From: Anaerolineaceae bacterium
Lineage (GTDB): Bacteria > Chloroflexota > Anaerolineae > Anaerolineales > Villigracilaceae
Direction: 5' to 3'
Assembly (NCBI GenBank): GCA_009885445.1
Contig: VFKQ01000148.1
Coordinates: 1-45,326, forward strand
DNA: 45,326 bases
Under the pieces are notes generated by a model. That model had not been told where the DNA came from. It ran no database searches and saw only the letters and a program-made list of their open reading frames with translations. The position numbers and the translations under genes are program-made. Of this stretch, positions 789 to 33,773 are shown in pieces. Numbering within the stretch: the first letter of the stretch is position 1; every line of letters begins with the position of its first letter.

Positions 789-925
789 GAGAGAAGAGAG
801 AAGAGGATTAGAGAATTGGAAATTAGAGACTGCGGTGGTCGAGCGATGTCCTGAGCTTGTCGAAGGGTAGGCGTACTCGCCGTATCGAGACCAGAGAATT
901 AGAGACTAGAGAATTAGAGAATTGG
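789..925. repeat. Composite repeat: AGAGAATT-type short tandem array interrupted by a GGTCGAG...TATCGAGACC element that itself carries a 24-nt insert
   Basis: gagagaagagagaagaggattagagaattggaaattagagac and agagaattagagactagagaattagagaattgg flank ggtggtcgag[24 nt]taggcgtactcgccgtatcgagacc. Confidence 0.85.
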
Positions 926-932
926 CCGTAGA

Positions 933-1247
933 TTATTTTGGTTTGCTGGAAAAACAAAATAATATGAACGCCATAGATAGAAAAAGGGAGGCGGCAACTA
1001 TTCCTGTTCCAAGCGAACCGCCGGACATTGCGAAAAGTAATGTTCCAACTACTAACGCGCCGAAAGCGATTACAAAGATCCACATGATTATGGATGACTT
1101 GCTCTCTTTTGGATATATCTTTTTGTATTTCCAATCGGGTTGATACTTTGCGGATGGGCGTCCGCGTTCGTCAAGCGGATGGTCAGCCTCCCACTTTAAT
1201 TGCGCGAGATAGTCTTCGGCCATGGAATGCTTGTCTTTTTTGGGCAT
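933..1247 (-). CDS. Small hypothetical membrane protein (2 TM)
   Basis: 104 aa ORF, GAGGAGG RBS, two hydrophobic segments in the C-terminal half. Confidence 0.65.
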   Translation of the reverse strand: MPKKDKHSMAEDYLAQLKWEADHPLDERGRPSAKYQPDWKYKKIYPKESKSSIIMWIFVIAFGALVVGTLLFAMSGGSLGTGIVAASLFLSMAFILFCFSSKPK

Positions 1248-1297
1248 TATTCCTCCTCTTCTTTCTCTCGAATATAGCGCGGATCAAGATCGTTGAA

Positions 1298-1726
1298 CTA
1301 GGCCCGATTTACAGACTTGAATGGATTGACAATTTGCAGACTCTTGCGGATGCTTAACCCATCCTGCATATCTTCCGAGTAAATAATCTCCGCCCCCGCG
1401 AGCACGGCTGCGGAAACGATGAGGCTGTCCCAATACGAAAGTGAATATTCCCTGCGCAATTCAGATGCCTTAAGCAGGGCTTCCTGTTGCAAGTCCATAA
1501 CAACGTATTTTCTGTAGAAAGTCTCAATGAGCTCAGCGATCCGCGCCTCCGGAAAGCGCGCCTTCCGGATCAAGTTGACGCAGACTTCGTTGATGACCTG
1601 AACGCTGATCACAGGCTGGCACGCGGCGATGACTGCCCGAGCCAAGCCCGCCTTTCTTGAATCGTCTTCCGTGAAAGCATACAACCAGATATTCGAGTCA
1701 ATAAAGCGCGGCTCACTTTCTGGCAT
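1298..1726 (-). CDS. vapC: PIN-domain (VapC-like) toxin
   Basis: FIDSNIWLY...QVINE...SYWDSLIVSAA...YSEDMQDG...IVNPF; overlaps the upstream small gene. Confidence 0.9.
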   Translation of the reverse strand: MPESEPRFIDSNIWLYAFTEDDSRKAGLARAVIAACQPVISVQVINEVCVNLIRKARFPEARIAELIETFYRKYVVMDLQQEALLKASELRREYSLSYWDSLIVSAAVLAGAEIIYSEDMQDGLSIRKSLQIVNPFKSVNRA

Positions 1727-1928
1727 TCGCTTCTTCCCGCGTCAGGGGCTTGAATCCCTTGATATTCAGGGGGTGCGCCATCAATTCGTCAATGATGTCC
1801 AAACCCTCTTTCTTTTCCTCGTAAGGAATCAGTATCACCCGGACGTTTTCGTTGACTTTGTCTTTGTATTTTGCAGGAATCGCGATTACGCCGTTCTTGA
1901 TTTTGGTCTTGAATTGCACTGTTTCCAT
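1713..1928 (-). CDS. Putative antitoxin paired with the PIN toxin
   Basis: 71 aa from ATG 1928 (GAGGTG RBS, TATAAT upstream); KTKIKNGVIAIP...VRVILI beta-type N-terminus, PLTREEAN tail; 14-nt overlap with the PIN gene. Confidence 0.75.
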   Translation of the reverse strand: METVQFKTKIKNGVIAIPAKYKDKVNENVRVILIPYEEKKEGLDIIDELMAHPLNIKGFKPLTREEANARK

Positions 1929-1968
1929 ATTGCACCTCAACTTGAATTATACAACTTTACGAGAGCCA

Positions 1969-2169
1969 TCACTCATTCCTAAACTGCAAACAATAATGAT
2001 GAAAGGTATTACTCACCCACGCGGAGCCGAGTCCGTACGGCGCGAGGGGTTGGTTGTCTTGCATCCAGATTTTTTCGTCTTTCAGAGTGTATGTCTTGCC
2101 GAGTTCGCGGGCCAAGTCCCGGGCGAGGCGGTCACTGACAACTCTTCTTGAAATTTTTCCCGGGACCAT
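1969..2169 (-). pseudogene. Chimeric remnant: probable start of a HEPN/DUF86 toxin fused to the 3' end of an unrelated gene
   Basis: Starts 1 nt after the MNT stop, where a HEPN partner is expected. MVPGKISRRVVSDRLA resembles such N-termini from memory. Only 66 aa, no RxxxxH motif. Confidence 0.45.
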
Positions 2170-2170
2170 G

Positions 2171-2587
2171 CTATGCCTCCTGCAAGATCATTGTCATGCG
2201 CTGGCGTTCCAACTCCGCCAAATCCCCTGCACGGCGGAGAATAAACAAGTCGTATTCATCCATAAGGTAGGAATCCTGCGCGTACACACGCTCACCGCGA
2301 ATGATGTTTGCGGCAAGGAATGCGTCTACTTCCTGCAAGATGAACAAATCAATAGCGGGGATGCCAAAAAGATTTTCCAAATCAAGCGTCAGGCTAACTT
2401 TGTTTTCAATTGAAAATGGATGATTGGTTAAAACCCCGATATCCAAACCACTTTGAGACGGAGTAAGTTGATATTGGTCATCTTGTATTGCATGGAGCAT
2501 ATCCGCACTTCGACCGCCAAAGACATACAATGCTTTGACTTGGTATTTTTTGCAGAGCAGTACAAGCTTGTCTAATCCGGCGTTCAT
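2171..2587 (-). CDS. Minimal nucleotidyltransferase (MNT/MntA-like antitoxin), degenerate active site
   Basis: LYVFGGRS...SGLDIGV...IDLFIL; the canonical GS and DxD motifs read GG and GxD. Confidence 0.8.
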   Translation of the reverse strand: MNAGLDKLVLLCKKYQVKALYVFGGRSADMLHAIQDDQYQLTPSQSGLDIGVLTNHPFSIENKVSLTLDLENLFGIPAIDLFILQEVDAFLAANIIRGERVYAQDSYLMDEYDLFILRRAGDLAELERQRMTMILQEA

Positions 2588-2652
2588 ACAATTACTATAC
2601 CCTGCGAATTCTGCTGCATTGACTGCAGCGCCGCAAACGTGGACTGGGTGAC
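2584..2652 (-). pseudogene. Orphan second copy of the last 22 codons of the bi-domain oxidoreductase
   Basis: Translates VTQSTFAALQSMQQNSQGIVIV* versus VTKSTFAAVESVRKNGEAQSCI*; 17-nt identity between 2629-2645 and 3458-3474. Confidence 0.85.
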
Positions 2653-2656
2653 ACTT

Positions 2657-3109
2657 TCAGGGCAGATAATATTCATCTTTTATACTCTGAATCAAATCCC
2701 CGGGCGTGCCGATGGTGAATGAGAGATTGATTTGTTTCTTCGCTTTTAAGAAATGTTCCTTGTCGTGAGTAACAAACCAATCCGGTTCGGCGCGAATGGC
2801 TTCGGCCAATACGCGCGCGTCTGGCATATAAGCGACCATACTTTGCGCAAGTTCAAGATGTTTTGGTCTGGATGCGGCGCATGTTTCCACCTGTCCCATA
2901 TCCAGCAGTTGCGCAAGCAAGGGCAGAGAGGCGGGGACTTTGCGACGAACTACTTCGTCGGCTTCTTGTAAGACAGTTGGCCCGACAATTAATTCCAATA
3001 TCCCAGCCTCTGCTAAATTGAATAATCGGCGTGCCCCGCCGCTTTGAGAAAGCACAGCGACGAAAATCACGCTGGTATCCAAAAAGACCTTAATGTTTTT
3101 TCGTGGCAT
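2657..3109 (-). CDS. vapC: PIN-domain toxin (PIN_3-like)
   Basis: VFLDTSVIF...LQEA...PDARVLAEA...FVTHDKEHF; ATG 3109 overlaps the AbrB gene end. Confidence 0.88.
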   Translation of the reverse strand: MPRKNIKVFLDTSVIFVAVLSQSGGARRLFNLAEAGILELIVGPTVLQEADEVVRRKVPASLPLLAQLLDMGQVETCAASRPKHLELAQSMVAYMPDARVLAEAIRAEPDWFVTHDKEHFLKAKKQINLSFTIGTPGDLIQSIKDEYYLP

Positions 3110-3359
3110 ACTCGGCGCGCACTTCACGGAGTGTGGTCAACATCGATTCGAGAGTCTCACCCGAGTCCTTCCATCCTTTTGCCAATTTGTCGGCAACGCC
3201 GTCTACCCGCGAACGGCGCGGACTCATGACAACCACGCCGTCGCCCAAGTCAATCAGGGTCAGCATGTCGCCTTCATTGATTTGGCTTTGGTCGCGCAAT
3301 TCTTTGGGTAAGGTGATTAACCCGCGCCGCACAACCTGCACTTTGAAAGTGGTGTTCAT
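3090..3359 (-). CDS. AbrB/MazE/SpoVT-family antitoxin
   Basis: VQVVRRGLITLPKELRDQSQINEGDML swapped-hairpin signature; GGAG RBS. Confidence 0.9.
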   Translation of the reverse strand: MNTTFKVQVVRRGLITLPKELRDQSQINEGDMLTLIDLGDGVVVMSPRRSRVDGVADKLAKGWKDSGETLESMLTTLREVRAEYATKKH

Positions 3360-3377
3360 TTTTGCTCCTGTCTGTAC

Positions 3378-3406
3378 ATCTGATTTTCAGTATATCAGAT
3401 TTTCTG
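3378..3406. promoter_or_regulatory. Likely autoregulatory operator/promoter of the AbrB-PIN operon
   Basis: Two adjacent palindromes CTGA-TTT-TCAG and CAGA-TTT-TCTG around a minus-strand TATACT -10 box. Confidence 0.5.
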
Positions 3407-3412
3407 CCGGAT

Positions 3413-5584
3413 TCAGATGCAGGACTGCGCTTCCCCGTTTTTGCGGACCGACTCCACCGCCGCAAACGTGGACTTTGTCACGCCGATCAAATGCTCGTAC
3501 GCAATCGGCGCGGGTCCGCCCTCGCGGATGGATTTGGCGAAGGCGGCCATTTCGTTTTTCCAGCCTTTATCTTGCGCGCCGCCCTTCGAGAACCTCAAGA
3601 CACCGCTTTCCACTTTCTTCTTGCCATCTTTCACCGTCGTCAGCGAAACGTAATCATCCAGCACCGCCACCATGCCGCCGCAAAAAACTTCGACGCGCTC
3701 TTTGGGCAGCGACTTGTCGCCGTTGGCGAAATAGTCCACCACGCCGATGGAGCCGTCGGGGAAAGTGAAGGTCATGCTGACATTGTCCTCGCGATATTTT
3801 CCGCCATCGGGCAACGCGCGCGCCGACACGCTGATAGCGGGTTCGCCGACGAGGAAGGTAATCAAGTCTACGAAGTGACAGGCTTCGCCGATGATGCGTC
3901 CGCCGCCGAGGAGCGGGTCTTGAGTCCAATGGTTGAGGGGCAGATGGCCGGCGTTGATGCGGTAGTGGATATATTTTGGTTCATTGAGATTCGAGATTAG
4001 AGAATTAAGAGAATTGGCAAGCGGCGAGAAGCGGCGATTAAATCCAGTCATCAGTAAACAGCTTTCAGTTTTCAGTAACTGCTTACGGATGACTGATAAC
4101 TGATCACTGTTGATCGCCAGTGGTTTTTCGACAAACACATGCTTGCCCGCTTTGAGCGCTTTCACCACCAAGTCCGCATGTGAGTCGTGTCGGGTGAGGA
4201 TGGCGATGGCGTTGATGTTTTTATCATTGATGATTTCATCTTCGGAGGAAGTGGCATATTGAAAGCCGAATTTCTTGCCCGAGTGTTGCGCGTGTAAACC
4301 ACCCGATGAAGCAATTCCAACGAGTTCGAAATCTTTATTGCTCTTGATTATCGGAAGAAGCGTTGCGTTGGCGTAAAGCCCTGCGCCGAGAACGCCGAGT
4401 TTGATAGCGCCGTCGAAGGTCGAACGTCGAAGGTCAAACTCAATCCTTCTTTCTTCTTTCTTCTTTCCTTCGGGATAGGTCAACAACACGCCAAGAAAAA
4501 CTTCCTTCTTTTTTCCAGTGATAACTTCGTAAGCCTTCACGCCATGCTCAATCGAAAAACGATGCGTGACCAGACTTTCGACTTTCAACTTTCGACTCGC
4601 CAGCAAATCCACCACGGCTTGGAAGTTGCGCCCCTCCGTCCAGCGGATGTAGCCGAGGGGATAGTCCACGCCGTTTTCTTCGTAGGTCGAGTCGTAGCGG
4701 CCCGGGCCGTAGGAGCGCGAGTTGATGAAGGCAATTTCTTTTTCGTAATAAACTTTGCGCGGAATATTCAGTCCCACCGCGCCCGTGGCGACGACGCGCG
4801 CGCGGTCGCGGGCGATGACTCCGCCGAGTTCGACGGGGTCGTTGGACGGAGTGTCCGCGCAGATGAGGACGACGTCGAAGCCGAGGTGGTTTGTAAACGC
4901 CCCAGCGGTGGACTCGGCTTGGGAGCGCGTGACCGCTTCAAGCCCGAGCGAGGAGGCGAGGGCGACGCGGCGCGGGTCGAGGTCAATGCCGAGGACGTTG
5001 CATCCCGCCGCAGACGCAATTTGAATCGTCAATAATCCTAAAAGACCCAAACCGATGACGGCCACATTCTCGCCAAGTTGCGGCTCAGCCAAACGAAAAC
5101 CGTGCAGGGCAATCGCGCCGAGGGTGGTGAACGCGGCGGATTCAAAATCAACATTTTTTGGAAGCGGAGTTAATAAATTGCGCGGCACAATATTGTATTC
5201 AGCGTGAACCGCGTAACCGCCGCCCGCGCAGGCCACGCGTTGACCCACTTTAAATCCCGCCATATTTTTGCCGAGCGCCACGATGGTGCCCGCGGAGGAA
5301 TAGCCAAGCGCCATGGGCTGGTCGAGGCGATTGAAGGCGGCTTGCGCTGTGTTGAGCAGGCCCTCGCGTTTTGCTTTTTCAATGACCTGCTTCACCAGGT
5401 CGGGCCGCGAGCGCGCCTTGCCGACGAGACTCTTTTCGGCGAACTCCACGACCATGCGCTCCGTGCCAGCCGAAACGAGCGACGCAGAAATTTTGACGAG
5501 GGCCTGCCCCTCACGCGGAGTCGGCACGGGCACGTCTTCAATAATGGTCTTACCATCGCGAATATTTTGCAACAACTGCTTCAT
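3413..5584 (-). CDS. Bi-domain oxidoreductase (MDR/Zn-ADH-like + Gfo/Idh/MocA), polysaccharide-cluster type
   Basis: SLVSAGTE, LGYSSAG, GLGLLG, SRSYGPGRYD, GVLGAG, HVFVEKPLA, GFNRRF, GGGRIIGEACHFVD. Confidence 0.92.
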   Translation of the reverse strand: MKQLLQNIRDGKTIIEDVPVPTPREGQALVKISASLVSAGTERMVVEFAEKSLVGKARSRPDLVKQVIEKAKREGLLNTAQAAFNRLDQPMALGYSSAGTIVALGKNMAGFKVGQRVACAGGGYAVHAEYNIVPRNLLTPLPKNVDFESAAFTTLGAIALHGFRLAEPQLGENVAVIGLGLLGLLTIQIASAAGCNVLGIDLDPRRVALASSLGLEAVTRSQAESTAGAFTNHLGFDVVLICADTPSNDPVELGGVIARDRARVVATGAVGLNIPRKVYYEKEIAFINSRSYGPGRYDSTYEENGVDYPLGYIRWTEGRNFQAVVDLLASRKLKVESLVTHRFSIEHGVKAYEVITGKKKEVFLGVLLTYPEGKKKEERRIEFDLRRSTFDGAIKLGVLGAGLYANATLLPIIKSNKDFELVGIASSGGLHAQHSGKKFGFQYATSSEDEIINDKNINAIAILTRHDSHADLVVKALKAGKHVFVEKPLAINSDQLSVIRKQLLKTESCLLMTGFNRRFSPLANSLNSLISNLNEPKYIHYRINAGHLPLNHWTQDPLLGGGRIIGEACHFVDLITFLVGEPAISVSARALPDGGKYREDNVSMTFTFPDGSIGVVDYFANGDKSLPKERVEVFCGGMVAVLDDYVSLTTVKDGKKKVESGVLRFSKGGAQDKGWKNEMAAFAKSIREGGPAPIAYEHLIGVTKSTFAAVESVRKNGEAQSCI

Positions 5585-5592
5585 ACTATTCT

Positions 5593-6714
5593 CTACTCTC
5601 TACTCTCTTCTCTCTGTTCTCTATTCCCTTGACTCAAAAACTCATCCATCAGCCCATGAAAATGATGCACGCCGTTTTCGCGCTTCACGGAGTAACGGCC
5701 TTGTTTGTAAATGCCGGTCAATAAATTTCTGTGCACATCTTCGCAAAGTTGAATATCTTCTTTTTGCACGGTGTCGCTGAAGGCGATGCCGTCTTGCAAA
5801 TTATTCCACGCTTCGGGCGTGCCCGGGTCGGCGTAGTACCACTCGAAGATAGTCAGCGTTTTATCGTGGCTGAGCGGGACGATGATGTTGATCTGCACGT
5901 TGCCCGGATAAATATTGACCATGAAATTCGGGAAGAGCCAATAATAAAAAGCGCGCTCGTCACCTTTGAGTTCGCTGAACACGCGGCCCACCGCATCTTC
6001 TGTGCGCACGGGGCGGATGGGCGCGTGTTGCGAAGAATAATATCGAAACGTGTCTACGCGGTATTGGTCGTAGTCAATTTCTTTGAACAAGCCTGGGTGC
6101 GCAATGGGAATGTGATAGCCCTCCAAATAATTGTCGATATAAATTTTCCAATTTGCATTGACCACATAATCGCGCCGTTCCACTTTGCGCATTTCGCCAA
6201 AGTTGAAATCGGCTGTTTCTGCGGGAATTTTGCCGAGCACTTCATTAAGCGGCGGGGCGTTGCCATCAAAGTTGACGAAGACGAACATGCCCCACGTGTC
6301 CACGCGAATCGGAATCAGCCCGAAATCGTCCTTGCTGAAATTTTCAACGCCATCGAACTCGGGCGCGTTACGCAATTTTCCGTCCAAGCCATAAAGCCAG
6401 CCGTGATATTGACATTGAAGCGACTTGCGATTCCCACAGCCTCGCGCGACGACTCCGCCACGATGACGGCAGACGTTGTGAAAAGCGCGGATCGTCCCGC
6501 CCTGATCGCGGGTTAGCACGACCGGGACGCCGACCACGTCCACGGCGGCGAAATTGCCGGGCAGGCGCAGCAGGTCCAGCGAGGCGGCGTACTGCCACGT
6601 GGCTCGGAAGACGGCAACCCGCTCCAAGCGGAGCATGAGCGGGTCGGTGTACCAGCCTGCGGGGGGCGTGAGCGCCGTCGCCAGATTTGGGTCGAGTCGG
6701 AAGATGCTGTCCAT
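5593..6714 (-). CDS. Rieske non-heme iron oxygenase alpha subunit (choline/carnitine monooxygenase-like)
   Basis: Rieske motif CRHRG...CQYHGW; mononuclear Fe site NWK...NYLEGYHIPIAH...ED. Confidence 0.9.
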   Translation of the reverse strand: MDSIFRLDPNLATALTPPAGWYTDPLMLRLERVAVFRATWQYAASLDLLRLPGNFAAVDVVGVPVVLTRDQGGTIRAFHNVCRHRGGVVARGCGNRKSLQCQYHGWLYGLDGKLRNAPEFDGVENFSKDDFGLIPIRVDTWGMFVFVNFDGNAPPLNEVLGKIPAETADFNFGEMRKVERRDYVVNANWKIYIDNYLEGYHIPIAHPGLFKEIDYDQYRVDTFRYYSSQHAPIRPVRTEDAVGRVFSELKGDERAFYYWLFPNFMVNIYPGNVQINIIVPLSHDKTLTIFEWYYADPGTPEAWNNLQDGIAFSDTVQKEDIQLCEDVHRNLLTGIYKQGRYSVKRENGVHHFHGLMDEFLSQGNREQREESRE

Positions 6715-6821
6715 GTTTGTTATGCTTTTATCAGTTTTTCAAAAGAGTATACCTTAAGGTCACATGCTATAATTTCGCGGTAATCGTTGTGAGAATGTCG
6801 ATTGTGTGGGCTTCGTGTGAT

Positions 6822-8089: not shown

Positions 8090-8118
8090 GTAGGGCCGCA
8101 GCATTGCTGCGGCCCTAC
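8090..8118. repeat. GTAG-type REP palindrome, 29 nt
   Basis: GTAGGGCCGCAGCA-T-TGCTGCGGCCCTAC between convergent genes. Confidence 0.9.
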
Positions 8119-8122
8119 GTAT

Positions 8123-8825: not shown

Positions 8826-8925
8826 GTTTTGCCACGGCTGGCGGGCGAGCGGTATTATATACCGTAAAGGAAATTTGCGTCAATGCGATTGCCAGATTCT
8901 CGTTTTGTGCCGATGCCAATTCATT

Positions 8926-9036
8926 TAAACACAAAGGACACAACGGGCACAAAGGGAAAGATGTGCAAAATAATAAAGCCTTCCGACTTAGTGTACTTCG
9001 CCCCACAGGGGGGCTTTGCTCTGCCCTTCGTGTTAA
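8926..9036. repeat. Period-9 inverted array (ACACAAAGG/CCTTCGTG type) with a nested 21-nt insert at 9001-9021
   Basis: aacacaaaggacacaacgggcacaaagg ... gtgtacttcg[ccccacaggggggctttgctc]tgcccttcgtgtt. Confidence 0.8.
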
Positions 9037-10053: not shown

Positions 10054-10082
10054 GTAGGGGCGCAGCAATGCTGCGCCCCTAC
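10054..10082. repeat. GTAG-type REP palindrome, 29 nt
   Basis: GTAGGGGCGCAGCA-A-TGCTGCGCCCCTAC. Confidence 0.9.
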
Positions 10083-10093
10083 AACGTAAACAA

Positions 10094-11094: not shown

Positions 11095-11123
11095 GTAGGG
11101 ACGCAGCATTGCTGCGTCCCTAC
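11095..11123. repeat. GTAG-type REP palindrome, 29 nt
   Basis: GTAGGGACGCAGCA-T-TGCTGCGTCCCTAC. Confidence 0.9.
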
Positions 11124-11134
11124 TTCGTTTCGTT

Positions 11135-12040: not shown

Positions 12041-12044
12041 TTTT

Positions 12045-12125
12045 TAACACAAAGGACACGAAGTACACAAAGTAAAAAATACTTTGGTTGAATCCCTTCG
12101 TGACCTTTGTGTCCTTTGTGGTGAA
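12045..12125. repeat. Period-9 inverted array
   Basis: aacacaaaggacacgaagtacacaaag ... cttcgtgacctttgtgtcctttgtggt. Confidence 0.85.
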
Positions 12126-12131
12126 TGTTTT

Positions 12132-13013
12132 TTATGAACTAGCCACACGCAGGAAGGCCTGCCATTCCTCGTCGGTGGTTTCGACGGAATGCTCAACGCC
12201 TGGGAATTGGCGCGCTTGCACTTCGCTGAGGTATTCGCCGAAGGCGCGTTTCATTTCGCCGTGGAAGTCGGCATATTTTTTGACGAACTTTGGAGTGAAG
12301 CGCTCGAAGAGACCGAGCAGGTCGTGGGTGACGAGGACTTGTCCGTCGCAAGCGAGGCCTGCGCCGATGCCGATGCTGGGGATGGAAATTTTTTGCGAGA
12401 TAAATTCTGCCAGCCGCGCGGGGACTGCCTCGAGCACGATGCTGAAGCATCCGGCTTCTTCGAGCAGGAGCGCGTCTTCGAGCAGGCGTTTGGCGGCGGA
12501 GGCAGACTTGCCCTGTGTGCGGAATCCGCCGAGCTGATTCACGGATTGCGGCGTGAGGCCGAGGTGGCCCATGACGGGGATGCCCGCCGCGACGATGGCG
12601 CGGACGGCGTCGACGCGTTCGCGTCCGCCCTCGAGTTTGACGGCTTCCATGCCGCCCTCTTGCAGGAAGCGGCCGGCGTTGCGCACGGCCTGCTCAACTG
12701 AAACTTGATACGACATGAAGGGCATGTCGCCGATGCGCAACGCGGATTTGGCTCCGCGCGCCACAGCGCGGCAGTGGTGGAGCATTTCTTCCATGGTGAC
12801 GGGCAGGGTGTTTTCGTAGCCGAGCACGACCATGCCGAGTGAGTCGCCGACGAGAATCGAATCGACTCCGGCCATGTCCATCGCGAGGGCGGTGGGATAG
12901 TCGTAGGCGGTGAGCATGCTGATCGGTTCGCCGTGTTCCTTCTTTTGACGGAACGTGAGCGTGGTCACTTTTTTGCGTTGCGAGACGGGAGCAGAGACAG
13001 AAACTGTAGACAT
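12132..13013 (-). CDS. panB: 3-methyl-2-oxobutanoate hydroxymethyltransferase
   Basis: MLTAYDY, ILVGDSLGMV, GDMPFMSY, VKLEGG, GHLGLTPQS, IGIGAG..CDGQVLV; ATG 13013 with GGAGG RBS. Confidence 0.96.
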   Translation of the reverse strand: MSTVSVSAPVSQRKKVTTLTFRQKKEHGEPISMLTAYDYPTALAMDMAGVDSILVGDSLGMVVLGYENTLPVTMEEMLHHCRAVARGAKSALRIGDMPFMSYQVSVEQAVRNAGRFLQEGGMEAVKLEGGRERVDAVRAIVAAGIPVMGHLGLTPQSVNQLGGFRTQGKSASAAKRLLEDALLLEEAGCFSIVLEAVPARLAEFISQKISIPSIGIGAGLACDGQVLVTHDLLGLFERFTPKFVKKYADFHGEMKRAFGEYLSEVQARQFPGVEHSVETTDEEWQAFLRVASS

Positions 13014-13125: not shown

Positions 13126-13274
13126 GGGCGGTTGCCCCAAAGGGGGGCTTCGCACAAACCGCCACTACATTTGCGAAGCCGACACTTCGACAGGCTCAGT
13201 GCAACGCCTTCGTCGGCTAACGCCCAGTCCACGAAGGTGGACTTCGCAGGCGTTGGTGCGACTTAAGTCGCCCA
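13126..13274. repeat. Composite palindromic element, copy 1 of 3, with nested 21-nt and 24-nt inserts
   Basis: Close match to 33647-33773 (gccactacattt.cgaagccgacacttcga...gccttcgtcggct...agtcc.cgaagg.ggacttcgc.gg.gttggtgcg.ctt.agtcgccca). Confidence 0.9.
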
Positions 13275-18744: not shown

Positions 18745-18773
18745 GTAGGGCCGCAGCAATGCTGCGGCCCTAC
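18745..18773. repeat. GTAG-type REP palindrome, 29 nt
   Basis: GTAGGGCCGCAGCA-A-TGCTGCGGCCCTAC. Confidence 0.9.
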
Positions 18774-18778
18774 TACAA

Positions 18779-25775: not shown

Positions 25776-26225
25776 TTAAGCTATTTTCTTGCCCGCACGT
25801 TTCGGTGCGGGTTTGGCCGGAGCGGCCTCGGGGGCCGGAGCGCTCATTGTGGGCGAACCCGCTTTGGGGCGTTGCCCTGAGCCTGTCGAAGGGTCGAGCA
25901 CGAGGCGCGCGTTGCGGCGTCCCAGCCAGTAGGCGCCATAGACCAATCCTGCGAACAGCACCAAGTGGATGAGTCCGCCGGCGTGCCCGCCACCATGGTC
26001 ACCGCCGAAACGTCCGCCATGATGTTTGCCGCCGTGAAAACTTTGGCCGGGCCCAACCTGAATCACCTCGCCCAGCGGCGCTTCAAACGGACCGCCAGCA
26101 AAAAACATGGGGCCATGCGCCGCAAAGCCCATGTGGGCCTGCGCCATAAAACCAACACACGCGCCAGCCGCGAACAGGGCCAGCCCCAAAACAATTCCTA
26201 AAAACCATTTCCAAAATTTATTCAT
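25776..26225 (-). CDS. Small Gly/His-rich membrane protein (2 TM)
   Basis: AGGAG RBS; MNKFWKWFLGIVLGL TM, HGG-rich loop, second TM, PA/K-rich tail; carries a 24-nt insert. Confidence 0.75.
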   Translation of the reverse strand: MNKFWKWFLGIVLGLALFAAGACVGFMAQAHMGFAAHGPMFFAGGPFEAPLGEVIQVGPGQSFHGGKHHGGRFGGDHGGGHAGGLIHLVLFAGLVYGAYWLGRRNARLVLDPSTGSGQRPKAGSPTMSAPAPEAAPAKPAPKRAGKKIA

Positions 26226-26335: not shown

Positions 26336-26410
26336 AAGGTATACAAGTACACATGTAAACACGTTTCCTGTTTCCCTGTGTACCTCTTCATCCTTCATCT
26401 TTCATCTTTG
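26336..26410. repeat. 8-mer inverted array plus (TTCATCT) heptamers upstream of the ATPase
   Basis: aaggtatacaagtacacatgtaaacacg / tttcctgtttccctgtgtacct / ttcatccttcatctttcatcttt; related 8-mer arrays at 28063-28119 and 43648-43673. Confidence 0.7.
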
Positions 26411-26416: not shown

Positions 26417-28060
26417 ATGACTCAACAACAACGCATCACCGACGACCTCGACGTTCTGCTGGATGTTCTGCCCCTGAACATCCGTCACGCCGTGGAGGCC
26501 GCCAACAAAAAAGAATATCTGCTCGAGATCATCCTCGACCTGGGGCGGGTGCCCACCGCGCGCTACGTGGAAGAAGAAATCATCCTCATTCCGAAGGAAG
26601 TGACGCGCGCCGACCTCGACTACGTCACCGAGCGCATCGGCGACTTCGACCTCGACAACCGCGCCGGCATGGAGCGCACCCTGCATCGCATCTCGTGCAT
26701 CCGCAATCGGCGCGGCGCAATCGTGGGCCTCACCTGCCGCATTGGCCGCGCCGTGTATGGCACCATCGACATGATCGAAGACATGCTCACCTCGGGCAAG
26801 TCCCTGCTTATCCTCGGCAGGCCGGGCGTCGGCAAGACAACCCTCCTGCGCGAGGCCGCGCGCATCCTCGCCGAGAAGAAGCGCGTCATCGTCGTCGACA
26901 CCTCCAACGAAATCGGCGGCGACGGCGACGTGCCACATCCCGCAGTGGGCAAGGCGCGCCGCATGCAAGTGAAAGTGCCCAGCCAACAACACGAAGTCAT
27001 GATCGAAGCCGTCGAGAATCACAACCCCGAAGTCATCGTCATCGACGAGATTGGCCGCGAACTCGAAGCCATGGCCGCGCGCACCATCGCCGAGCGCGGC
27101 GTGCAACTCATCGGCACCGCGCACGGCAACACCCTCGACAACCTCCTGCTCAACCCCACCATCAGCGACCTCGTCGGCGGCATCGAAGCCGTCACTCTCA
27201 GCGACGAAGAGGCCCGTCGGCGCGGCACCCAAAAAACCGTCCTCGAACGACGCGCCCCACCCACCTTCGACGTGCTCATCGAAATCCAAAACCGCGACCG
27301 CTTCGCCGTGCACACCGACATCCAAGCCTCCATAGACGCGCTCCTGCGCGGCTTCCCGCTCATCCCCGAAATCCGCACCCGCGAAGACGACGGCAAGATT
27401 CGGATTGAGAAAGCCGCCCCGCCGAAGACGTCGCGAGTCGACGCGCGCGACACCGTCAAAACGCCTCGACGCGCGCCCACAGCGGGTGACCCCTCCGAAG
27501 AGCCGAGTCGCCCCGTAAAATCTCCACGCGCATCCGCCGCCCTCGCAGAGACTCCTCCGCCCGCGCCGGTCAGCACCGTCGGCATGAAAACCGTGCGCAT
27601 CTTCGCATATGGCGTGGCGCGCAACCGTCTGCAACAAGCCGCCAAGCGCATGGGTGTGCCCGCCATCATCGTCCGCGACGTTGAAGAAGCCGACGCGCTC
27701 GTTACTCTGCGCTCGTATTATCGCGACCGTCAAGCCACCGTCATTGACGCCGAAGCGCGCGGCATGCCCATCTACGTCCTGCGCGCCAACACCATCAACC
27801 AGGTGGAGCAGTTCATGGGTGACCTGTACAACCTGCCCTCTGAAAGCGCGGTGGCGGGACACAACAGCGAACTCGACAACGTGCGCGACGAAACCCAACT
27901 GGCCATCGCCGCCGTGCTCAACGGCGAACGCTGGGTAGACCTGCCCCCCGGCCCCTCCCTAGTTCGCCGCCTGCAACACGAAATGGCACGCAACGCAGAG
28001 TTAATCTCACATTCGTATGGCAAAGAACCCAAGCGGCATGTGAGGATTTTTAGGGAATAA
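26417..28060 (+). CDS. SpoIIIAA/Ycf45-like AAA ATPase with C-terminal R3H domain
   Basis: EIILDLGR, GRPGVGKTT, VDTSNEIGGDG, IVIDEIG, IGTAHG; RRLQH...SHSYGKEPKRHV; ATG 26417 preferred because the upstream extension is repeat DNA. Confidence 0.9.
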   Translation: MTQQQRITDDLDVLLDVLPLNIRHAVEAANKKEYLLEIILDLGRVPTARYVEEEIILIPKEVTRADLDYVTERIGDFDLDNRAGMERTLHRISCIRNRRGAIVGLTCRIGRAVYGTIDMIEDMLTSGKSLLILGRPGVGKTTLLREAARILAEKKRVIVVDTSNEIGGDGDVPHPAVGKARRMQVKVPSQQHEVMIEAVENHNPEVIVIDEIGRELEAMAARTIAERGVQLIGTAHGNTLDNLLLNPTISDLVGGIEAVTLSDEEARRRGTQKTVLERRAPPTFDVLIEIQNRDRFAVHTDIQASIDALLRGFPLIPEIRTREDDGKIRIEKAAPPKTSRVDARDTVKTPRRAPTAGDPSEEPSRPVKSPRASAALAETPPPAPVSTVGMKTVRIFAYGVARNRLQQAAKRMGVPAIIVRDVEEADALVTLRSYYRDRQATVIDAEARGMPIYVLRANTINQVEQFMGDLYNLPSESAVAGHNSELDNVRDETQLAIAAVLNGERWVDLPPGPSLVRRLQHEMARNAELISHSYGKEPKRHVRIFRE

Positions 28061-28125
28061 TAACGTACACAGGTAGACAGGTACACACGAAAACACGCGG
28101 CCTGTCTACTGGTTTACCTCCCATC

Positions 28126-28468
28126 ATGTTCATCACCCTTGAAGGCTCTGGCAAGACCTAGCACATCCCCGCTCGTCGGCTATCTACGCGCGCTGGTGAA
28201 ATACGCCACTGGCGGACTCGTCCCCGACCTGACGATTCTGCTCGACGTGGATGTGGAAGTGGGCCTGAAGCGTAAGCACAACGACGCGGATTGGAACCGC
28301 ATGGACTCGCAGACGATTGACTTTTATCGCCGTGTCCGCGCGGGGTATGCTGAAATGGTGAAGCAGGACCCAAGTCGCTGGCGTGTGGTGGACGCGGGCG
28401 CGGACTGGCAGTCCGTGCAAGAGGGGTTGAGAAAAATTATTTTGGAGGAGCTGCCAGCTCGAAAATAA
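28126..28468 (+). pseudogene. tmk: Decayed second copy of thymidylate kinase
   Basis: Aligns to 38094-38720 with a 9-bp deletion in the P-loop, TCG>TAG, a 2-bp deletion and a 267-bp deletion between CGCGCGC repeats. Confidence 0.92.
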
Positions 28469-28470
28469 AA

Positions 28471-28511
28471 AAAAAGGCGTAGCGGAACAATGCGTTACGC
28501 CTTTTTGATTC
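28471..28511. terminator. Terminator-like hairpin, repeated at 29242-29279
   Basis: aaaaaggcgtagc-ggaacaatgc-gttacgcctttttgattc. Confidence 0.8.
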
Positions 28512-28554
28512 CCATATTTGAGAAGTGCTATAATCGTTTTCGATAGAGACAACC

Positions 28555-28881
28555 ATGAGCATTCAAGAAATTGAACCCCAACTCTCCCGTATGAGCCGCG
28601 CCGAAAAAGCAGAACTCCTGCAAAGACTGGCGCGGGAAGTTGCCAACGTTTGGCCTGGCATCGAAAAAACGGCTGGTGTTTCGGGCGGCGAGGCCTGTAT
28701 CGTACGCACGCGCATCCCCGTTTGGACACTCGATAATTATCGCCGCCTGGGCTGGACTGAAGCCGCCATTCTCGAGAACTTCCCCTCCCTGCGCGCCGCG
28801 GATTTGGTCAATGCGTGGGCATATGTGGACGCGCACACTGAGGAAATTGAGCAAACTATTCACGCCAATGAGGGAGCTTGA
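28555..28881 (+). CDS. DUF433-domain antitoxin
   Basis: IEKTAGVSGGEACIVRTRIPVW...ILENFPSLRAADLVNAWAY; TATAAT at 28529. Confidence 0.92.
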   Translation: MSIQEIEPQLSRMSRAEKAELLQRLAREVANVWPGIEKTAGVSGGEACIVRTRIPVWTLDNYRRLGWTEAAILENFPSLRAADLVNAWAYVDAHTEEIEQTIHANEGA

Positions 28882-29222
28882 TGGCACTGTTATACAGCAA
28901 TGAAAATTTTCCGTTGAAAGTCGTGCAACTCCTGCGCGATATGGGGCATGATGTTTTGTCATCGAACGAAGCAGGAAATTCAAACCAAAGAGTCCCGGAT
29001 GAAGACGTATTGGTATTTGCCATTCAATCGGACAGAGTTTTGTTAACTTTGAATCGTCGCGATTTCATCGCTTTGCATCAGCGAATCTCGAATCATTCAG
29101 GCATTATTGTCTGCACACAAAGCGCAGATTTACAGGAACAAGCCGAGCAAATCCATCTGGCGATTCAGGCAGCAAGCTCATTGGCCGGAAAATTGATAAG
29201 GGTAAATCGCAAACCTAAATAG
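28881..29222 (+). CDS. DUF5615 PIN-like toxin
   Basis: LYSNENFP...GHDV...DEDVL..A...RVLLTLNRRDF...HSGII; TGATG coupling to DUF433. Confidence 0.9.
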   Translation: MALLYSNENFPLKVVQLLRDMGHDVLSSNEAGNSNQRVPDEDVLVFAIQSDRVLLTLNRRDFIALHQRISNHSGIIVCTQSADLQEQAEQIHLAIQAASSLAGKLIRVNRKPK

Positions 29223-29241
29223 AGAATGTTCAAAATAATTC

Positions 29242-29279
29242 AAAAAGGCGTAGCATCAACTGCTACGCCTTTTTGATTC
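29242..29279. terminator. Second copy of the terminator-like hairpin
   Basis: aaaaaggcgtagca-tcaac-tgctacgcctttttgattc. Confidence 0.8.
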
Positions 29280-29669
29280 TCACACTCCATCTATAAACTC
29301 CCACTCGCCTGTGCGACTGAGGGTGTGCATGGCGAGCAAGTCGTTGTGCTGAAAAATCTTTTCGGCGTATGATGTTTCGGTTAATAAATCAATGCGAAAG
29401 CCATAACGCAGTGAACAATCTTGCGCGGGGCGATAGAGCGCGCCGTCATGGGCGAAGATCGGCCCAGCGGGGCGGGCGTTGCTGACATCGGAGACGATGG
29501 GGTTGAGCGGATGCGGAGTCCATGCGGTGGAGAGCAGGTCGTCGGCGAAGAACAAATGCAATTCATCCCACGAGGATGCGCCCGACTCGGTCTTCACGTT
29601 GGCGAACAGCCACCAGCGGTTGTTGTAATTTAACAGCGTCGAGTCTACCGCGTAGATGTCGCTGATCAA
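29280..29669 (-). pseudogene. C-terminal fragment of a beta-propeller glycoside-hydrolase-like protein (GINT1 N-domain-like)
   Basis: VDSTL....RWWLF...ELHLF.AD.....WTPHPLNPI....ARPAG......LYRPAQDC...YG; lacks the N-terminal part and a proper start. Confidence 0.6.
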
Positions 29670-29941
29670 ATTGTGGACGAAGTGTAACGATGGAATTCTG
29701 TTTCAATCTTAACTAGCACGTCCACTGCGGCTTTGACTCCGCGTAAACTACGCTGGGCGCGCACTGCGCGCTGAACAGGGTTTTCTTTGCTTTCGGGGAT
29801 AATCACCAGGAAATCCATGTCGCTGTCAGCATTTGGCTTGCCCCAGGCATAGGAGCCAAAAAGATAAATCATTTATGGATGAAATTCATCCACGAGACGG
29901 CGAATCACTTCTTTGCGCATGACAAGTGAAATTGTGTTCAT
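29666..29941 (-). pseudogene. Nucleotidyltransferase (MNT) pseudogene, no HEPN partner
   Basis: ATG 29941 MNTISLVMRKEVIRRLVDEFHP*MIYLFGSYAWGKPNADSDMDFLVI: in-frame TAA at codon 23; C-terminus appears cut. Confidence 0.85.
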
Positions 29942-29982
29942 AGTGACGAAATTATACGTGTGTATTGAAAACTAAAATACAT

Positions 29983-31326
29983 TCACCATACCCTCTCCAG
30001 ATCCGGGTTATCCGCCGCGCGGCGACCGACCTTGGCCATGTCTACCCATTCGCCTTGGACTTTTACGCGCGTCACGTCGGCGGTGAAATCGGTGACGGTG
30101 GCGCTGGAGTTATTAAATAGATATGAGCCGACTGCATAAATATCGGCAGGGACGCCCAGCGTTTCGAAACGTTTAATTTTTTCTGGATTGAACCCGCCCG
30201 AGACAATGATCTTCACGGTGCGACAATATTCGCGCGCCGCTTCTTTCCACGCCTCGGGCAGGCTCCAGTTTTCTGAGGCCGAGTCCAACGCCTGGCGGAC
30301 ATTAAACACCAGCCGCGGGTTCACGCCCAAGTCGAGCGCCGCATCGCCCAGCGGCGGCACAGACACATCGCGGACACTTCCGCTCGTGTCGAGACGCACG
30401 CCATACAACACATATTTGGCGGCTTCCTCTTTTTGACCGGCGTCGATCAATTCGCGGTACTTCGTAAACATGGCATTCATCACACGCAACGAATCGCGGA
30501 TGCTGTCGTTATTAAAGTCCACCAGCGCGATGCGCGGAGTGCGCGGCGGCAGGACTCGTGAAAAGGTCATCATGGCTTCGGCGGTGTCGCCAAGGAAGGA
30601 GGCAATCGCCGCGTGGGCAATCGTCCCGCCGCCGGCGCCGCCCCACCAGTCACCCTGCGCGTCGGTGGAGACGAAGAGTCCGAGCGTCTGGGCGTATTCG
30701 GCGTTGAACTTCTGCACGGCGAGGTTGTACGAGTAACCGTCGGCGGCTTGCACTTCGTGCAGGTCGAAGCGGGCCGGGAAAAACAACACGGGTTTGCCGC
30801 GCGCCGAAACGAGCGTATCAAATACATTTGTGGCGACCCGGCTCGAGCGCGTTAAGATGCCGAGCGTGGGCGTTTCGAGCAGAGCAAAATCGCGATAACG
30901 TCCGCGCACACGCACGACGGGCTGGATATTAATCGGGTCGCCGTCGTATTTAACTGTCGCGCCGTCTTGCACGGCCCACACTTGCAGGTTTGCGGAAGTG
31001 TCCACGAAGTGGTCGCCGTCGAACGAGCCACTGCAATGACGGAGCATCGCCAGAGTCTTATCTACGCCGACGACGATGGTCTTGCCCGGGCGGCGCGTGA
31101 ACCACTGCATCTCCACTTCGATGTCGCCGACTTCCACTTCGTGGGCAGGGAAGTTCACGGGCAGGTTGGAGTGATGGCCTGAATATTTGTAGCCTTCACC
31201 CGCCAGAGCGATGAGCATGCGGCCGATGTTCTCGAAATATTTATCTGAGTACCAGCCGCGGCGCATGCGATCTATATCGAGTTTGAAGACTTCGTTGGTC
31301 AGGCGTTTACCGTCAAAGATGGACAT
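29983..31326 (-). CDS. pncB: Nicotinate phosphoribosyltransferase-like protein
   Basis: YSDKYF, LFFPARFD, GGTIAHA, ALVDFNND, GVRLDTSG, IIVSGGF, DFTADV; downstream of a nicotinamidase-like gene. Confidence 0.85.
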   Translation of the reverse strand: MSIFDGKRLTNEVFKLDIDRMRRGWYSDKYFENIGRMLIALAGEGYKYSGHHSNLPVNFPAHEVEVGDIEVEMQWFTRRPGKTIVVGVDKTLAMLRHCSGSFDGDHFVDTSANLQVWAVQDGATVKYDGDPINIQPVVRVRGRYRDFALLETPTLGILTRSSRVATNVFDTLVSARGKPVLFFPARFDLHEVQAADGYSYNLAVQKFNAEYAQTLGLFVSTDAQGDWWGGAGGGTIAHAAIASFLGDTAEAMMTFSRVLPPRTPRIALVDFNNDSIRDSLRVMNAMFTKYRELIDAGQKEEAAKYVLYGVRLDTSGSVRDVSVPPLGDAALDLGVNPRLVFNVRQALDSASENWSLPEAWKEAAREYCRTVKIIVSGGFNPEKIKRFETLGVPADIYAVGSYLFNNSSATVTDFTADVTRVKVQGEWVDMAKVGRRAADNPDLERVW

Positions 31327-31349
31327 GGGGTTCCTTTTATTGATTTATA

Positions 31350-31411
31350 GTAGGGGCGACCCGTCAATACAAATCAAGGCGATTTGTTCTCGCCGGGCGG
31401 GTCGCCCCTAC
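31350..31411. repeat. GTAG REP with a long spacer
   Basis: gtaggggcgacccgtc ... ggcgggtcgcccctac. Confidence 0.85.
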
Positions 31412-31417
31412 TGCGAT

Positions 31418-32428
31418 CTAAATGGATGTCAAAAAATCATCCGTTGATTTCACGCGATGCATGCCAGCCTGCGCAAATTTTGCAAAGGCTTCGTTCGCCG
31501 CGTCAGTGTAATCCAATCCCGGCACGACGACGGGGGAGGTGCAGTCTTCGAGCAGGTAAACTTTTTTCGCCAGTGATGAGTCGGTTGCGTTAATGTCATT
31601 CAGCAGGTCGGCCACTGTCCACGCCACGCAATGACTCTTGGCCTGACCGGCGATGATCAGCGCGTCTACTTCTTTGAGGGTTTCGATGAATTGTGAATTG
31701 TGTTCGCCGAGCACTTCGCCGCGCGGACCGGTCGTCACTTCGGGGCCGATGGCGGAATAATTTTCAGTGAAGGGACGGTCACCTTTGAGTTCAAATAGTG
31801 TCGGCGCAAAACGCGCAATGGAGTGAAAGAACAACGCCTCTTCAACTGACGAAGCCAGCGCATGTCCCACGCCGCCGAGCATGGCGTGATAAGGCCAGAT
31901 GGTCAGGGAAAGTTTTCCGTTTTTTTCAAGTTGCTCAGCATACTGAACAAGACGTTGCTGACCATATTCTGCGCTGACTTTAAACTCGTCAGCTAGTGCA
32001 GGGTTGAATTGCCAGCGACCCGCTTTGAGGTCGGCGCTTGAGACGAGGCTGTAGGGGGCGGGATGCTCACCAGCAGAGTCCACTAAAAAGATGGGGTGAA
32101 AAATCTGCATGGCGCGATGCGTGTCGAGCGTGGCGGTGATTTGCGAGATGTGACCGAGATTGCGATAAATAAATTCGCACAGTCGGCGGTTATCGTCGAC
32201 TGCGCCGCGGCCATCGCGCCCGCCGACGAAGAGTTCAAAATCGGGCAGGCAAAAAGTATTTTGCACATCGATCAGCAGGAGCCACACTTTGCGCGCATCT
32301 TGCGCGGCGGGTCGCAAATTATTTTTTTGCGCCCACTCACGAGCTTGCGCGGCGCGGGCGGCGTAATCCACGCGCCAGTGGGTGTTGAGTTTATCGGGGT
32401 CAAAAAAATCAGGGATGGGAGTGGGCAT
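31418..32428 (-). CDS. pncA: Isochorismatase-superfamily cysteine hydrolase, probable nicotinamidase
   Basis: IDVQNTF (Asp), TLDTH and WPYH (metal ligands), LKG (Lys), GQAKSHCV (Cys); ATG 32428 with AAGGA RBS. Confidence 0.8.
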   Translation of the reverse strand: MPTPIPDFFDPDKLNTHWRVDYAARAAQAREWAQKNNLRPAAQDARKVWLLLIDVQNTFCLPDFELFVGGRDGRGAVDDNRRLCEFIYRNLGHISQITATLDTHRAMQIFHPIFLVDSAGEHPAPYSLVSSADLKAGRWQFNPALADEFKVSAEYGQQRLVQYAEQLEKNGKLSLTIWPYHAMLGGVGHALASSVEEALFFHSIARFAPTLFELKGDRPFTENYSAIGPEVTTGPRGEVLGEHNSQFIETLKEVDALIIAGQAKSHCVAWTVADLLNDINATDSSLAKKVYLLEDCTSPVVVPGLDYTDAANEAFAKFAQAGMHRVKSTDDFLTSI

Positions 32429-32545
32429 AGAGATTCCTTTACAGCCCTTCTTATACCGTAAATTTAAAAATGTGTGCATGAAAAAAATCGCCCACCACAG
32501 ATTAAGTGGCAGGCGACTCTTGCATACAAATATTTTCAGCGACTG

Positions 32546-33376
32546 CTACGCGCCCTGTTTCGCGCTCGAAGCGGGTTGGGCGCGATTGAACATTCTCAAG
32601 CTGATGAAGACGGTCGCAAAGTAAGCCACGTAAGCGAGAATTTCTGTAAGTGATGGGTTGCCGTTATAACCAAACAGCGCCTTGAGCAATAGCCCGAGAG
32701 TGGAGTCTTCGTTGATGAAAGCGTTCATATCCCAAACGTGCTCAACAATGACGGGGACCCAGCCGACCTCGTTGAACTCGTGCACGCCATGTGCGACGAG
32801 TCCGGCGGCGAAGAGAATCAGCAAAAAGCCGGTGACTTGAAAAAAGCGGCGCAGGTCAAGGCGGATGATGGCCGCGAAAATGGACCAGCCCAGGAGGATG
32901 GATGTGCCGAGTCCGAGAATCGCGCCGACGGTGGTTTGCAACCAGTCGGTGGCGAAGACGGAGGCAGTGAGGAAGAGCGCAAGTTCGATGCCTTCGCGCA
33001 GAAGGGCGATAAAGGCCACTAGAAACACGGCCCGCTTCCCCGTCCCGAAAGCGGCGCGGTGGACGTCGGCTTCGATCGTCGGCTTGAGAGTCCGCGCGGT
33101 GCGACTCATCCAGAAAATCATCCAGGTCAGCAGGGCCGCGGCGAGAATCATGGTGATGCCTTCGAAGATCATTTCTGCAGGGCCTTCGAGTTGGAAACCA
33201 AACAGAGTCAGCAATACGGCAACGGCCAGGCTGATCACGGTGGCGGACAATGTCCCCAGCCAGACGGGTGAAACCAGGTCGGGGCGACGCATTTGACGCA
33301 CCGCGCCGAGGACAATGCCGACGATGAGCGCGGCTTCGATGCCTTCGCGCAGGGAGAGCAGATAACTTGGAAGCAT
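32546..33376 (-). CDS. FTR1/EfeU-family iron permease
   Basis: Two REGIE motifs (LSLREGIEAAL, LLREGIELAL), about 7 TM. Confidence 0.93.
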   Translation of the reverse strand: MLPSYLLSLREGIEAALIVGIVLGAVRQMRRPDLVSPVWLGTLSATVISLAVAVLLTLFGFQLEGPAEMIFEGITMILAAALLTWMIFWMSRTARTLKPTIEADVHRAAFGTGKRAVFLVAFIALLREGIELALFLTASVFATDWLQTTVGAILGLGTSILLGWSIFAAIIRLDLRRFFQVTGFLLILFAAGLVAHGVHEFNEVGWVPVIVEHVWDMNAFINEDSTLGLLLKALFGYNGNPSLTEILAYVAYFATVFISLRMFNRAQPASSAKQGA

Positions 33377-33390
33377 GAATTTACCTCATT

Positions 33391-33510
33391 GGCGATTGAA
33401 ATCGCCGCAACATTTACGAAGTCCGCCTTCGCGGACTAGCCGACGAAGGCGATGTGCTGAGCCTTGTCGAAGTATCGGCTTTGCGGCGGCAGTGGCGACT
33501 TTAGTCGCCC
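33391..33510. repeat. Composite palindromic element, copy 2 (inverted)
   Basis: ggcgattgaaatcgcc...gaagtccgccttcgcggact agccgacgaagg[25 nt]tcggct...ggcgactttagtcgccc. Confidence 0.88.
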
Positions 33511-33646
33511 AACCTGGACAAAAAATCGGCCTATTTCAGGCTGATTTAGGCAAAGTCTACCACGCGAGGGCGGAACTTGGCAAGATATTTATCACTTTTT
33601 TCATAAATATTGGTCATGCGATAATCCCATGAAAACAGCGAACTCG

Positions 33647-33773
33647 GGGCGACTCAAGTCGCCACTACATTTACGAAGCCGACACTTCGATGAACTCAGT
33701 GCATCGCCTTCGTCGGCTGAATACAGTCCGCGAAGGCGGACTTCGCGGGTGTTGGTGCGGCTTGAGTCGCCCA
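33647..33773. repeat. Composite palindromic element, copy 3
   Basis: gggcgactcaagtcgcc...agccga[24 nt]ccttcgtcggct...agtccgcgaaggcggactt...gcggcttgagtcgccca. Confidence 0.9.

Follow-up and report, generated by a model that had tools for sequence, protein, structure and literature searches.

A precisely inserting 23–25-nt hairpin element found across bacterial phyla and a GIY-YIG nuclease as candidate for its spread

Introduction

Here, we describe a non-coding element of 23–25 nt, hereafter the unit, about 90 full copies of which are present as clean insertions with fixed ends in the genome of an Anaerolineaceae bacterium (assembly GCA_009885445.1; 2.98 Mb in 404 contigs, 92% complete). The unit was noticed in contig VFKQ01000148.1, the whole 45,326-nt stretch of which is referred to below as the window, and it recurs, with the same ends, in many phyla. 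Protein relatives carry the labels Anaerolineales/Chloroflexota. The unit inserts precisely, and we propose, giving the idea about an even chance, that a small Slx1-like GIY-YIG nuclease acts in trans to spread it, by nicking followed by copying-in at short homology. The stronger version, in which this protein of ~95 aa by itself mobilises a pan-bacterial element and the two form a second, not previously described nuclease–repeat system, we hold to be rather doubtful.

A short unit with fixed ends

A preliminary description of the window, made from its sequence alone, had listed six related units, all of which were found where it placed them and on the same strands (Table 1). In the genome as a whole, the core CTTCGA-N4/5-CTCA has 122 matches, compared with 8–12 in three block shuffles, a structure-scored rule gives 87 copies against one in a shuffle, and an IUPAC pattern gives 93 against none for a reversed-pattern control. 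A refined rule recognises 90 copies, namely 57 of 24 nt and two of 25 nt with the tail termed type A, and 19 of 23 nt and 12 of 24 nt with that termed type B. Tabulating lengths and flanks genome-wide, as the description had advised, bore out its fixed boundaries, with ~90 copies, while the fixed length of 24 nt that it proposed gave way to a span of 23–25 nt with two tail types. An Rfam scan of the window at gathering score returned tRNA only, with no family matching the units.

Read on the strand opposite to the consensus first given, the unit consists of a tag, a 4-bp stem, GA, G, a closing pair with a loop of 2–3 nt, T, C, GA and the returning arm of the stem. Type A has a 5-nt tag, CG-N-Y-G, and a loop that is mostly 2 nt, and type B a 4-nt tag, C-Y-T-G, and a loop of 2 or 3 nt. 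Among 73 distinct sequences, collected with the stems left free and including some chance matches, Watson-Crick pairs are found at the second stem position in 51 (23 expected) and at the inner pair, as C-G, T-A or G-C, in 59 (47 expected), counts that related copies inflate. G.T wobbles number 40 on the folding strand and 12 on the opposite one. A hairpin fold of one strand is thereby predicted, with the tandem G.A mismatches and covarying pairs on a single strand that had been pointed out earlier; the supposed 5-nt loop, by contrast, is better described as a closing pair, a loop of 2–3 nt and a bulged T.

Host repeats, empty sites and target

The units occupy fixed positions in unrelated host repeats, each of which has many empty copies. 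Genome-wide, the repeat type that holds the unit at 844 has 130 empty and 14 filled copies, and that of the unit at 13183, a repetitive extragenic palindromic (REP)-type repeat, has 19 empty and 13 filled; a further type (35 and 2), a heptamer (98 and 7) and a 9-mer (81 and 6) follow the same pattern. The empty site previously assigned to 40715–40727 is real, although it belongs to a paralogous copy of the host hairpin repeat and not to an orthologous site. Similarly, the units at 13183, 33450 and 33683 do share one repeat type, as had been said, but a single shared insertion is not established by this, the 13 filled copies holding eight unit sequences. No filled/empty polymorphism was seen among the matches listed from public-run contigs, and contigs of study P2 cross the units at 3582 and 25870 without a 24-nt gap. 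Tandem repeats of the 9-mer family, which hosts the 24-mer, lie in the window at 8924–8971, 12042–12135, 35854–35949 and 38837–38874, and the same repeat type flanks the GxxExxY genes of this genome (L637, L642, L646, L650).

The target preference is RRG/TNG, which in this genome comes close to GAAGG/TCG on the folding strand and there resembles the unit's own 3' arm. A G precedes the junction at 92% of 25 type A sites here and at 89% of 161 elsewhere. No target duplication is obligatory, in agreement with the preliminary description; a 1-nt duplication was rejected as a rule, as the first base and the base following the unit differ at 25 of 166 type A and 93 of 261 type B sites. For type B in this genome these two bases covary, being A/A in six of six. 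Pairing of the tag with its target, as a guide, was also rejected, there being no signal of tag–target complementarity, and two 'same base' signals in viral type B sites may be GC effects.

Copies inside genes

The clearest host-gene comparison is that of the unit at 3582. Among 119 parsed homologues of the oxidoreductase (of 121 proteins, two were not parsed), the corresponding segment has 18 residues in 113, 26 in four and 19 in two, so the clean eight-residue gap predicted on removal of the unit, giving KKVESG/AQDKG, is what the 113 homologues without the eight residues display. Of 29 parsed loci in the family, the short form is seen at 24 and a filled form at two. One relative (G008) carries a different 24-mer at the identical nucleotide position, followed by a different host allele, from which it appears that no duplicated base is required. 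In a tree of 39 of 120 proteins, calculated with the variable segment left out, the window protein is sister to an empty protein (100/99). The three remaining filled proteins form a separate group, and none of 200 bootstrap trees joins the window protein to them. On these sequences, two insertions at one position would be the simplest reading; a single gain followed by precise loss, or conversion, may also account for the pattern.

For the unit at 25870, two orthologues (G008 and G047) read LDP and lack the peptide that the unit adds in frame (PSTGSGQR), but the tail of the protein is too diverged to place the 3' junction. Directly after this unit, at 25855–25869 on the minus strand, lies the motif RARGCGGGTT(C/A)GCC, which has 18 copies in the genome against none backwards. 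It is often half of an ACCCGC..GCGGGT hairpin, and it may be another micro-repeat that enters genes in frame. In a related strain (run X5), the octamer repeats contain two additional 16-nt pieces, at 26338 and 26366.

Across the genome, long open reading frames (ORFs) are avoided, with 30 of 90 copies inside them compared with 71.5% of random positions. Pfam domains were found in 16 of 20 scanned host ORFs, including PriA, MutL, RecO, sigma-70, Mur ligases and CinA, and both orientations of the unit are present in genes. The length is 24 nt in 18 of 19 in-gene copies and in 51 of 71 elsewhere (p=0.037), and among type B copies, in counts set by hand, a length of 23 nt is seen in one of seven in Pfam-confirmed genes and in 18 of 24 elsewhere (p=0.007). 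This excess of 24-nt copies in genes points to selection on the reading frame. The 'codon length' ascribed to the unit hence describes most in-gene copies, but with 23-nt copies in existence it looks like a filter imposed by selection and not a fixed property; precise, in-frame entry into genes is itself borne out by the host-gene comparisons. Elsewhere, a long acidic, alanine-rich ORF (L123, G119:C43:139200-140952) is made up in part of repeated type B-like units, read in frame.

Table 1. Units, their host genes and host repeats in the window
Feature	Position	Strand	Remarks
24-nt unit, type A	844..867	-	Folding strand +; in long hairpin repeat, directly after that repeat's GA-G
24-nt unit, type A	3582..3605	+	Folding strand -; in frame in oxidoreductase gene; inner-pair variant G-C
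24-nt unit, type A	13183..13206	+	In REP-type repeat; on contig C338, an empty copy of this type flanks a Y1 transposase gene
24-nt unit, type A	25870..25893	-	In frame in tail of 149-aa protein that has no Pfam match
25-nt unit, type A tail, 3-nt loop	33450..33474	-	Same REP-type repeat as 13183
24-nt unit, type A, inner-pair variant T-A	33683..33706	+	Same REP-type repeat as 13183
Host gene of 3582 unit: Zn-dehydrogenase / Gfo-Idh-MocA bi-domain oxidoreductase, 723 aa	3413..5584	-	
Host ORF of 25870 unit, 149 aa	25776..26225	-	Matches in 14 of 70 family genomes
Host repeat of 844 unit: long hairpin with the same stem/GA.GA/G-C/bulged-T core	833..892	+	Type flanks the GIY-YIG lineage in relatives
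Empty paralogous copy of 844-type host repeat	40712..40780	+	Both arms, longer interior; second arm at 40770

Range across bacteria

The preliminary description saw the unit as acting in this lineage, where it is indeed present; this was too narrow, the same 24-mer occurring across phyla. From 8 of 64 parts of the genome collection, 116 loci in many phyla were obtained with an exact type A pattern, and in these cross-phylum loci the base after the unit is C at 104 of 114 distinct sites. The phyla that contain the unit include at least Chloroflexota, Cyanobacteria, Actinomycetota, Bacteroidota, Pseudomonadota and Latescibacterota, and phage contigs hold it too. Of 121 relatives of the genome studied here, 90 possess it, copy numbers among the relatives running from 0 to 152. 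Both types are found in 11 of 12 Nostoc-group genomes, and the unit was also seen in named Nostoc records; within this group (L753–L782) the next base is C at 13 of 13 type A and T at 14 of 15 type B sites. A complete Binatia chromosome (G146) has 172 copies (L693–L752), many of them in two or three layers of nesting within hairpins of one family. Of the 63 copies examined there, most have entered members of this hairpin family at the bulge, in repeated nesting. At another locus (L102), four full units stand head-to-tail.

A candidate GIY-YIG nuclease lineage

The first signal of an associated enzyme was a core exactly like that of the unit, within longer hairpins, that among the GIY-YIG loci of relatives brackets one lineage at eight of eight loci, against one of 22 for the others. 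With all samples pooled, and with the lineage distinguished from other GIY-YIG groups on a tree, the core lies within 500 bp of 125 of 129 distinct lineage genes and of one of 27 other GIY-YIG genes. Loci whose gene the pattern missed having been dropped, it stands beside the lineage gene at 74 of 76 metagenome loci, which are biased in coming from close relatives, and at 25 of 26 loci of relatives. In other phyla, in genomes chosen for holding the unit and to that extent also biased, it is found at 25 of 25 loci with lineage matches of at least 100 bits, often as the mini-hairpin itself. Among control flanks, the core was seen at 1 of 30 Y1, 2 of 29 oxidoreductase and 4 of 30 GxxExxY loci and in 34 of 300 random windows of this genome; the Y1, GxxExxY and housekeeping controls lie at background level. 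At one locus (L045), the lineage gene lies between inverted mini-hairpins and is followed by tandem units. In addition, regularly spaced arrays of 4–10 hairpins with spacers, pointing away on both sides of the gene, were observed within 500 bp around the GIY-YIG gene at four loci (L679, L686, L687, L668) in Actinomycetota and one cyanobacterium.

The lineage protein, of ~95 aa, retains the catalytic residues, with Y5, Y15, G17, R25, H29 and E62 invariant, and no NCBIfam family matches it above cut-off. Its model (pLDDT 88) has a fold that resembles UPF0213, HIGLE and Slx1, the nearest solved relatives being UPF0213 structures. SsnA requires Y6, Y17 and E64 (PMC11893778), and 1zg2 and 1ywl have been termed bacterial Slx1 family (PMC1564403). 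Twenty-eight lineage loci fall in 20 different neighbourhoods, compared with one for 21 housekeeping relatives; the lineage gene is mobile and changes its neighbourhood freely.

Given the core structure shared by unit and flanking hairpins, the lineage nuclease likely recognises the unit hairpin in single-stranded DNA (ssDNA). It is also the likely candidate for spreading the unit, bearing in mind that a shared structure by itself speaks of recognition and not of movement. Among the 121 relatives, the median number of units is 14 with the lineage gene and one without it. The GIY-YIG gene that this genome does possess (on C94) was discarded as the mover, being of the housekeeping type and having no flanking cores.

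Proposed mechanism and competing explanations

Briefly, the nuclease, bound to a hairpin, would nick the target at G/N, and the freed 3' end (..AAGG) would anneal to the flank of a donor unit, allowing a host polymerase to copy the tag and hairpin. The new end (..AAGGG) would then re-anneal at the nick, because it mimics the 5' side of the target, and ligation would leave one unit. Repeated rounds would yield tandem and nested arrays, and gene-borne copies would survive chiefly when they are 24 nt long. We infer this route from the resemblance of the target to the unit's 3' end, the absence of duplication and the tandem arrays. Spread in trans, which had been suggested from the window, holds up. 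No gene family is enriched beside ordinary copies: neighbour enrichment at 116 genome loci, 87 copies of this genome and 266 viral loci brought out no recurring mobilising family, and the small-nuclease enrichment that the earlier description anticipated as a test was not seen for any gene family at ordinary copies.

Several observations weigh against this proposal. Neither tblastn nor a hidden Markov model detected the lineage gene in this genome (92% complete, 404 contigs), and 24 of 50 unit-bearing genomes likewise gave no match. When loci were selected by the unit, the gene lay nearby at just one of 116 in genomes and at no viral locus. Standard DNA energies for the hairpin are 0 to -2.5 kcal/mol, and an alternative fold is often preferred. 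In co-occurrence with the unit, the GxxExxY control does as well as the lineage gene (odds ratio 14.8 against 7.8, with kin not independent), so that the association may reflect repeat-rich lineages; with a control equally strong, genome co-occurrence was set aside as proof of the nuclease. In the Binatia chromosome there is no replichore bias (47/43 vs 36/45, p=0.36; 171 of 172 copies), on an origin assumed at dnaA and with nesting in host repeats that may hide a bias. GIY-YIG enzymes hydrolyse DNA, and we know of no strand transfer by them. Lastly, a circle intermediate would leave the same sequences as nicking and copying-in.

The competing explanations divide the two roles differently. In one, which we think unlikely, the nuclease recognises the hairpin, explaining its conservation, but something else spreads the 24-mer, be it repair or recombination by the host at nicks or another small repeat-linked nuclease such as GxxExxY (PD-(D/E)xK). 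This genome has four GxxExxY genes and no lineage gene that we could find, the 9-mer repeats flanking GxxExxY genes are targets of the unit, and among genomes without the GIY-YIG lineage at least five copies are present in 27 of 56 that are GxxExxY-positive, against 1 of 33. The core, however, is near just 4 of 30 GxxExxY genes, the GIY-YIG lineage still predicts copy number in GxxExxY-positive genomes (odds ratio 3.5, p=0.013), and uniform ends across phyla would seem to need a specific cutter.

A transposase of the HUH/Y1 type (RAYT or IS200/IS605), excising the unit as a tiny single-stranded circle and, guided by the tag, inserting it on the 3' side of a G, appears less probable still. The chemistry of IS200/IS605 and REP elements is single-stranded, uses a subterminal hairpin and makes no target duplication, which suits the subterminal hairpin with its bulged T, the 5' tag and the head-to-tail arrays (L102), and three units in the window lie in the repeat type that flanks a Y1 gene; yet the core is near only 1 of 30 Y1 loci, co-occurrence is weak (odds ratio 1.9, p=0.13), and neither tag–target complementarity nor, in G146, a replichore bias was detected. 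Flank and co-occurrence tests thus gave no support to Y1 as the mover. A Y1-like domain that ends an ORF of ~550 aa (L003, G000:C81:2038-2394, and relatives) was observed in many relatives. Least probable, and to our minds very improbable, is movement as RNA that a reverse transcriptase acting in trans copies into nicked targets: the one-strand wobbles (40 vs 12) and tandem G.A suit RNA and ssDNA alike, and uniform ends without a truncated series, both orientations in genes, the lack of an Rfam match and a shared core tied to a DNA nuclease family all speak against it.

Other features of the window

A 245-nt second copy of the 3' half of a thymidylate kinase gene, 84% identical, lies 10 kb from the full gene (28139–28468 and 38433–38677). 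Four GTAG-tagged palindromic repeats of 32 nt are found at 8090–8121, 10054–10085, 11095–11126 and 18745–18776, and a cluster of PIN-domain and nucleotidyltransferase genes at 1298–3127 probably represents toxin–antitoxin pairs. What is probably a helicase-loader operon lies at 33777–37325, where dnaB precedes a gene with a DnaB_2 domain and another, of 504 aa, that has two stretches of IstB/DnaC-like ATPase.

Comparison with known systems and significance

Small dispersed repeats (SDRs) SDR1-8 of the Nostocaceae, reportedly described by Elhai and colleagues in 2008, are said to be 21–27 nt long with fixed ends and to insert precisely, entering short tandem repeats and also genes, there in frame, with no known mover. 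To our knowledge, the mode of movement of repeats of ~24 nt has been an open question ever since. The unit falls within this size range at 23–25 nt with fixed ends, likewise shows filled and empty orthologous sites and in-frame gene copies, and is present in the Nostoc group (11 of 12 genomes); it differs in reaching many phyla and phages, the SDRs being known from Nostocaceae. In its behaviour it is like an SDR-type element, and it probably is one. SDR5 has been described as inserting into HIP1 (PMC4390886, PMC5861425).

The closest enzymatic parallel is that of the Ssn nucleases (GIY-YIG, cd10448) with their NTS/SRM repeats (Chenal et al. 2025, PMC11893778), of which SsnA is a single-domain GIY-YIG enzyme that binds, as ssDNA, the hairpin flanking its gene and makes its cut a few bases upstream. 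Common to both is a single-domain GIY-YIG gene (~95 aa in our case) with tagged hairpin repeats on either side, of which further copies are dispersed through the genome. In contrast, the published SRM pattern is beside 1 of 156 GIY-YIG genes here, the unit hairpin has internal tandem G.A and a bulged T, and the lineage protein is closest to UPF0213/Slx1-type structures; in the available text of PMC11893778 we found neither mention of UPF0213 nor a report of a precisely inserting 24-nt form. CGTC- and GTAG-tagged REPs, for their part, are short tagged hairpins with dimers and clusters and with in-frame copies in replication and repair genes, and the CGTC REPs 'lack a dedicated transposase' (Di Nocera et al. 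2013, PMC3733652). These features are shared with the unit. The CGTC REPs, however, have by that account a CGTC/TGTC tag, a stem of 8–9 bp and a 3' tail, whereas the unit has internal G.A pairs in a hairpin with a stem of 4 bp, is tagged with CG-N-Y-G or C-Y-T-G and lacks a tail. Unit peptides were not found among the intragenic REPs listed in the text available. By the published definitions, as far as these texts give them, the unit is neither a CGTC REP nor an SRM. The IS200/IS605 and REP/RAYT systems resemble it in the subterminal imperfect hairpin, strand asymmetry and lack of target duplication, and differ in that no Y1 gene is tied to the core and that a single hairpin with its surroundings, 24 nt in all, contains both ends of the unit. 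Neither the unit nor the nuclease–repeat pair was found described in the literature searched, which left subscription journals mostly outside its scope; the Ssn supplements could list the lineage.

For movement of the SDR type, there is now a substrate defined by its tag, 4-bp stem, tandem G.A and bulged T, along with a rule for the target and a candidate enzyme that can be named. Across phyla, the unit is also a source from which conserved proteins gain eight-residue inserts, such as those in PriA, MutL, RecO, a sigma-70 factor, Mur ligases and CinA, with the same nucleotide position apparently used more than once. Were the GIY-YIG protein alone to prove the mobiliser, the two would be the smallest transposon pair known, the protein would be the missing enzyme of the cyanobacterial SDRs, and the pair would offer a natural tool for scar-free insertion of eight-residue peptides.

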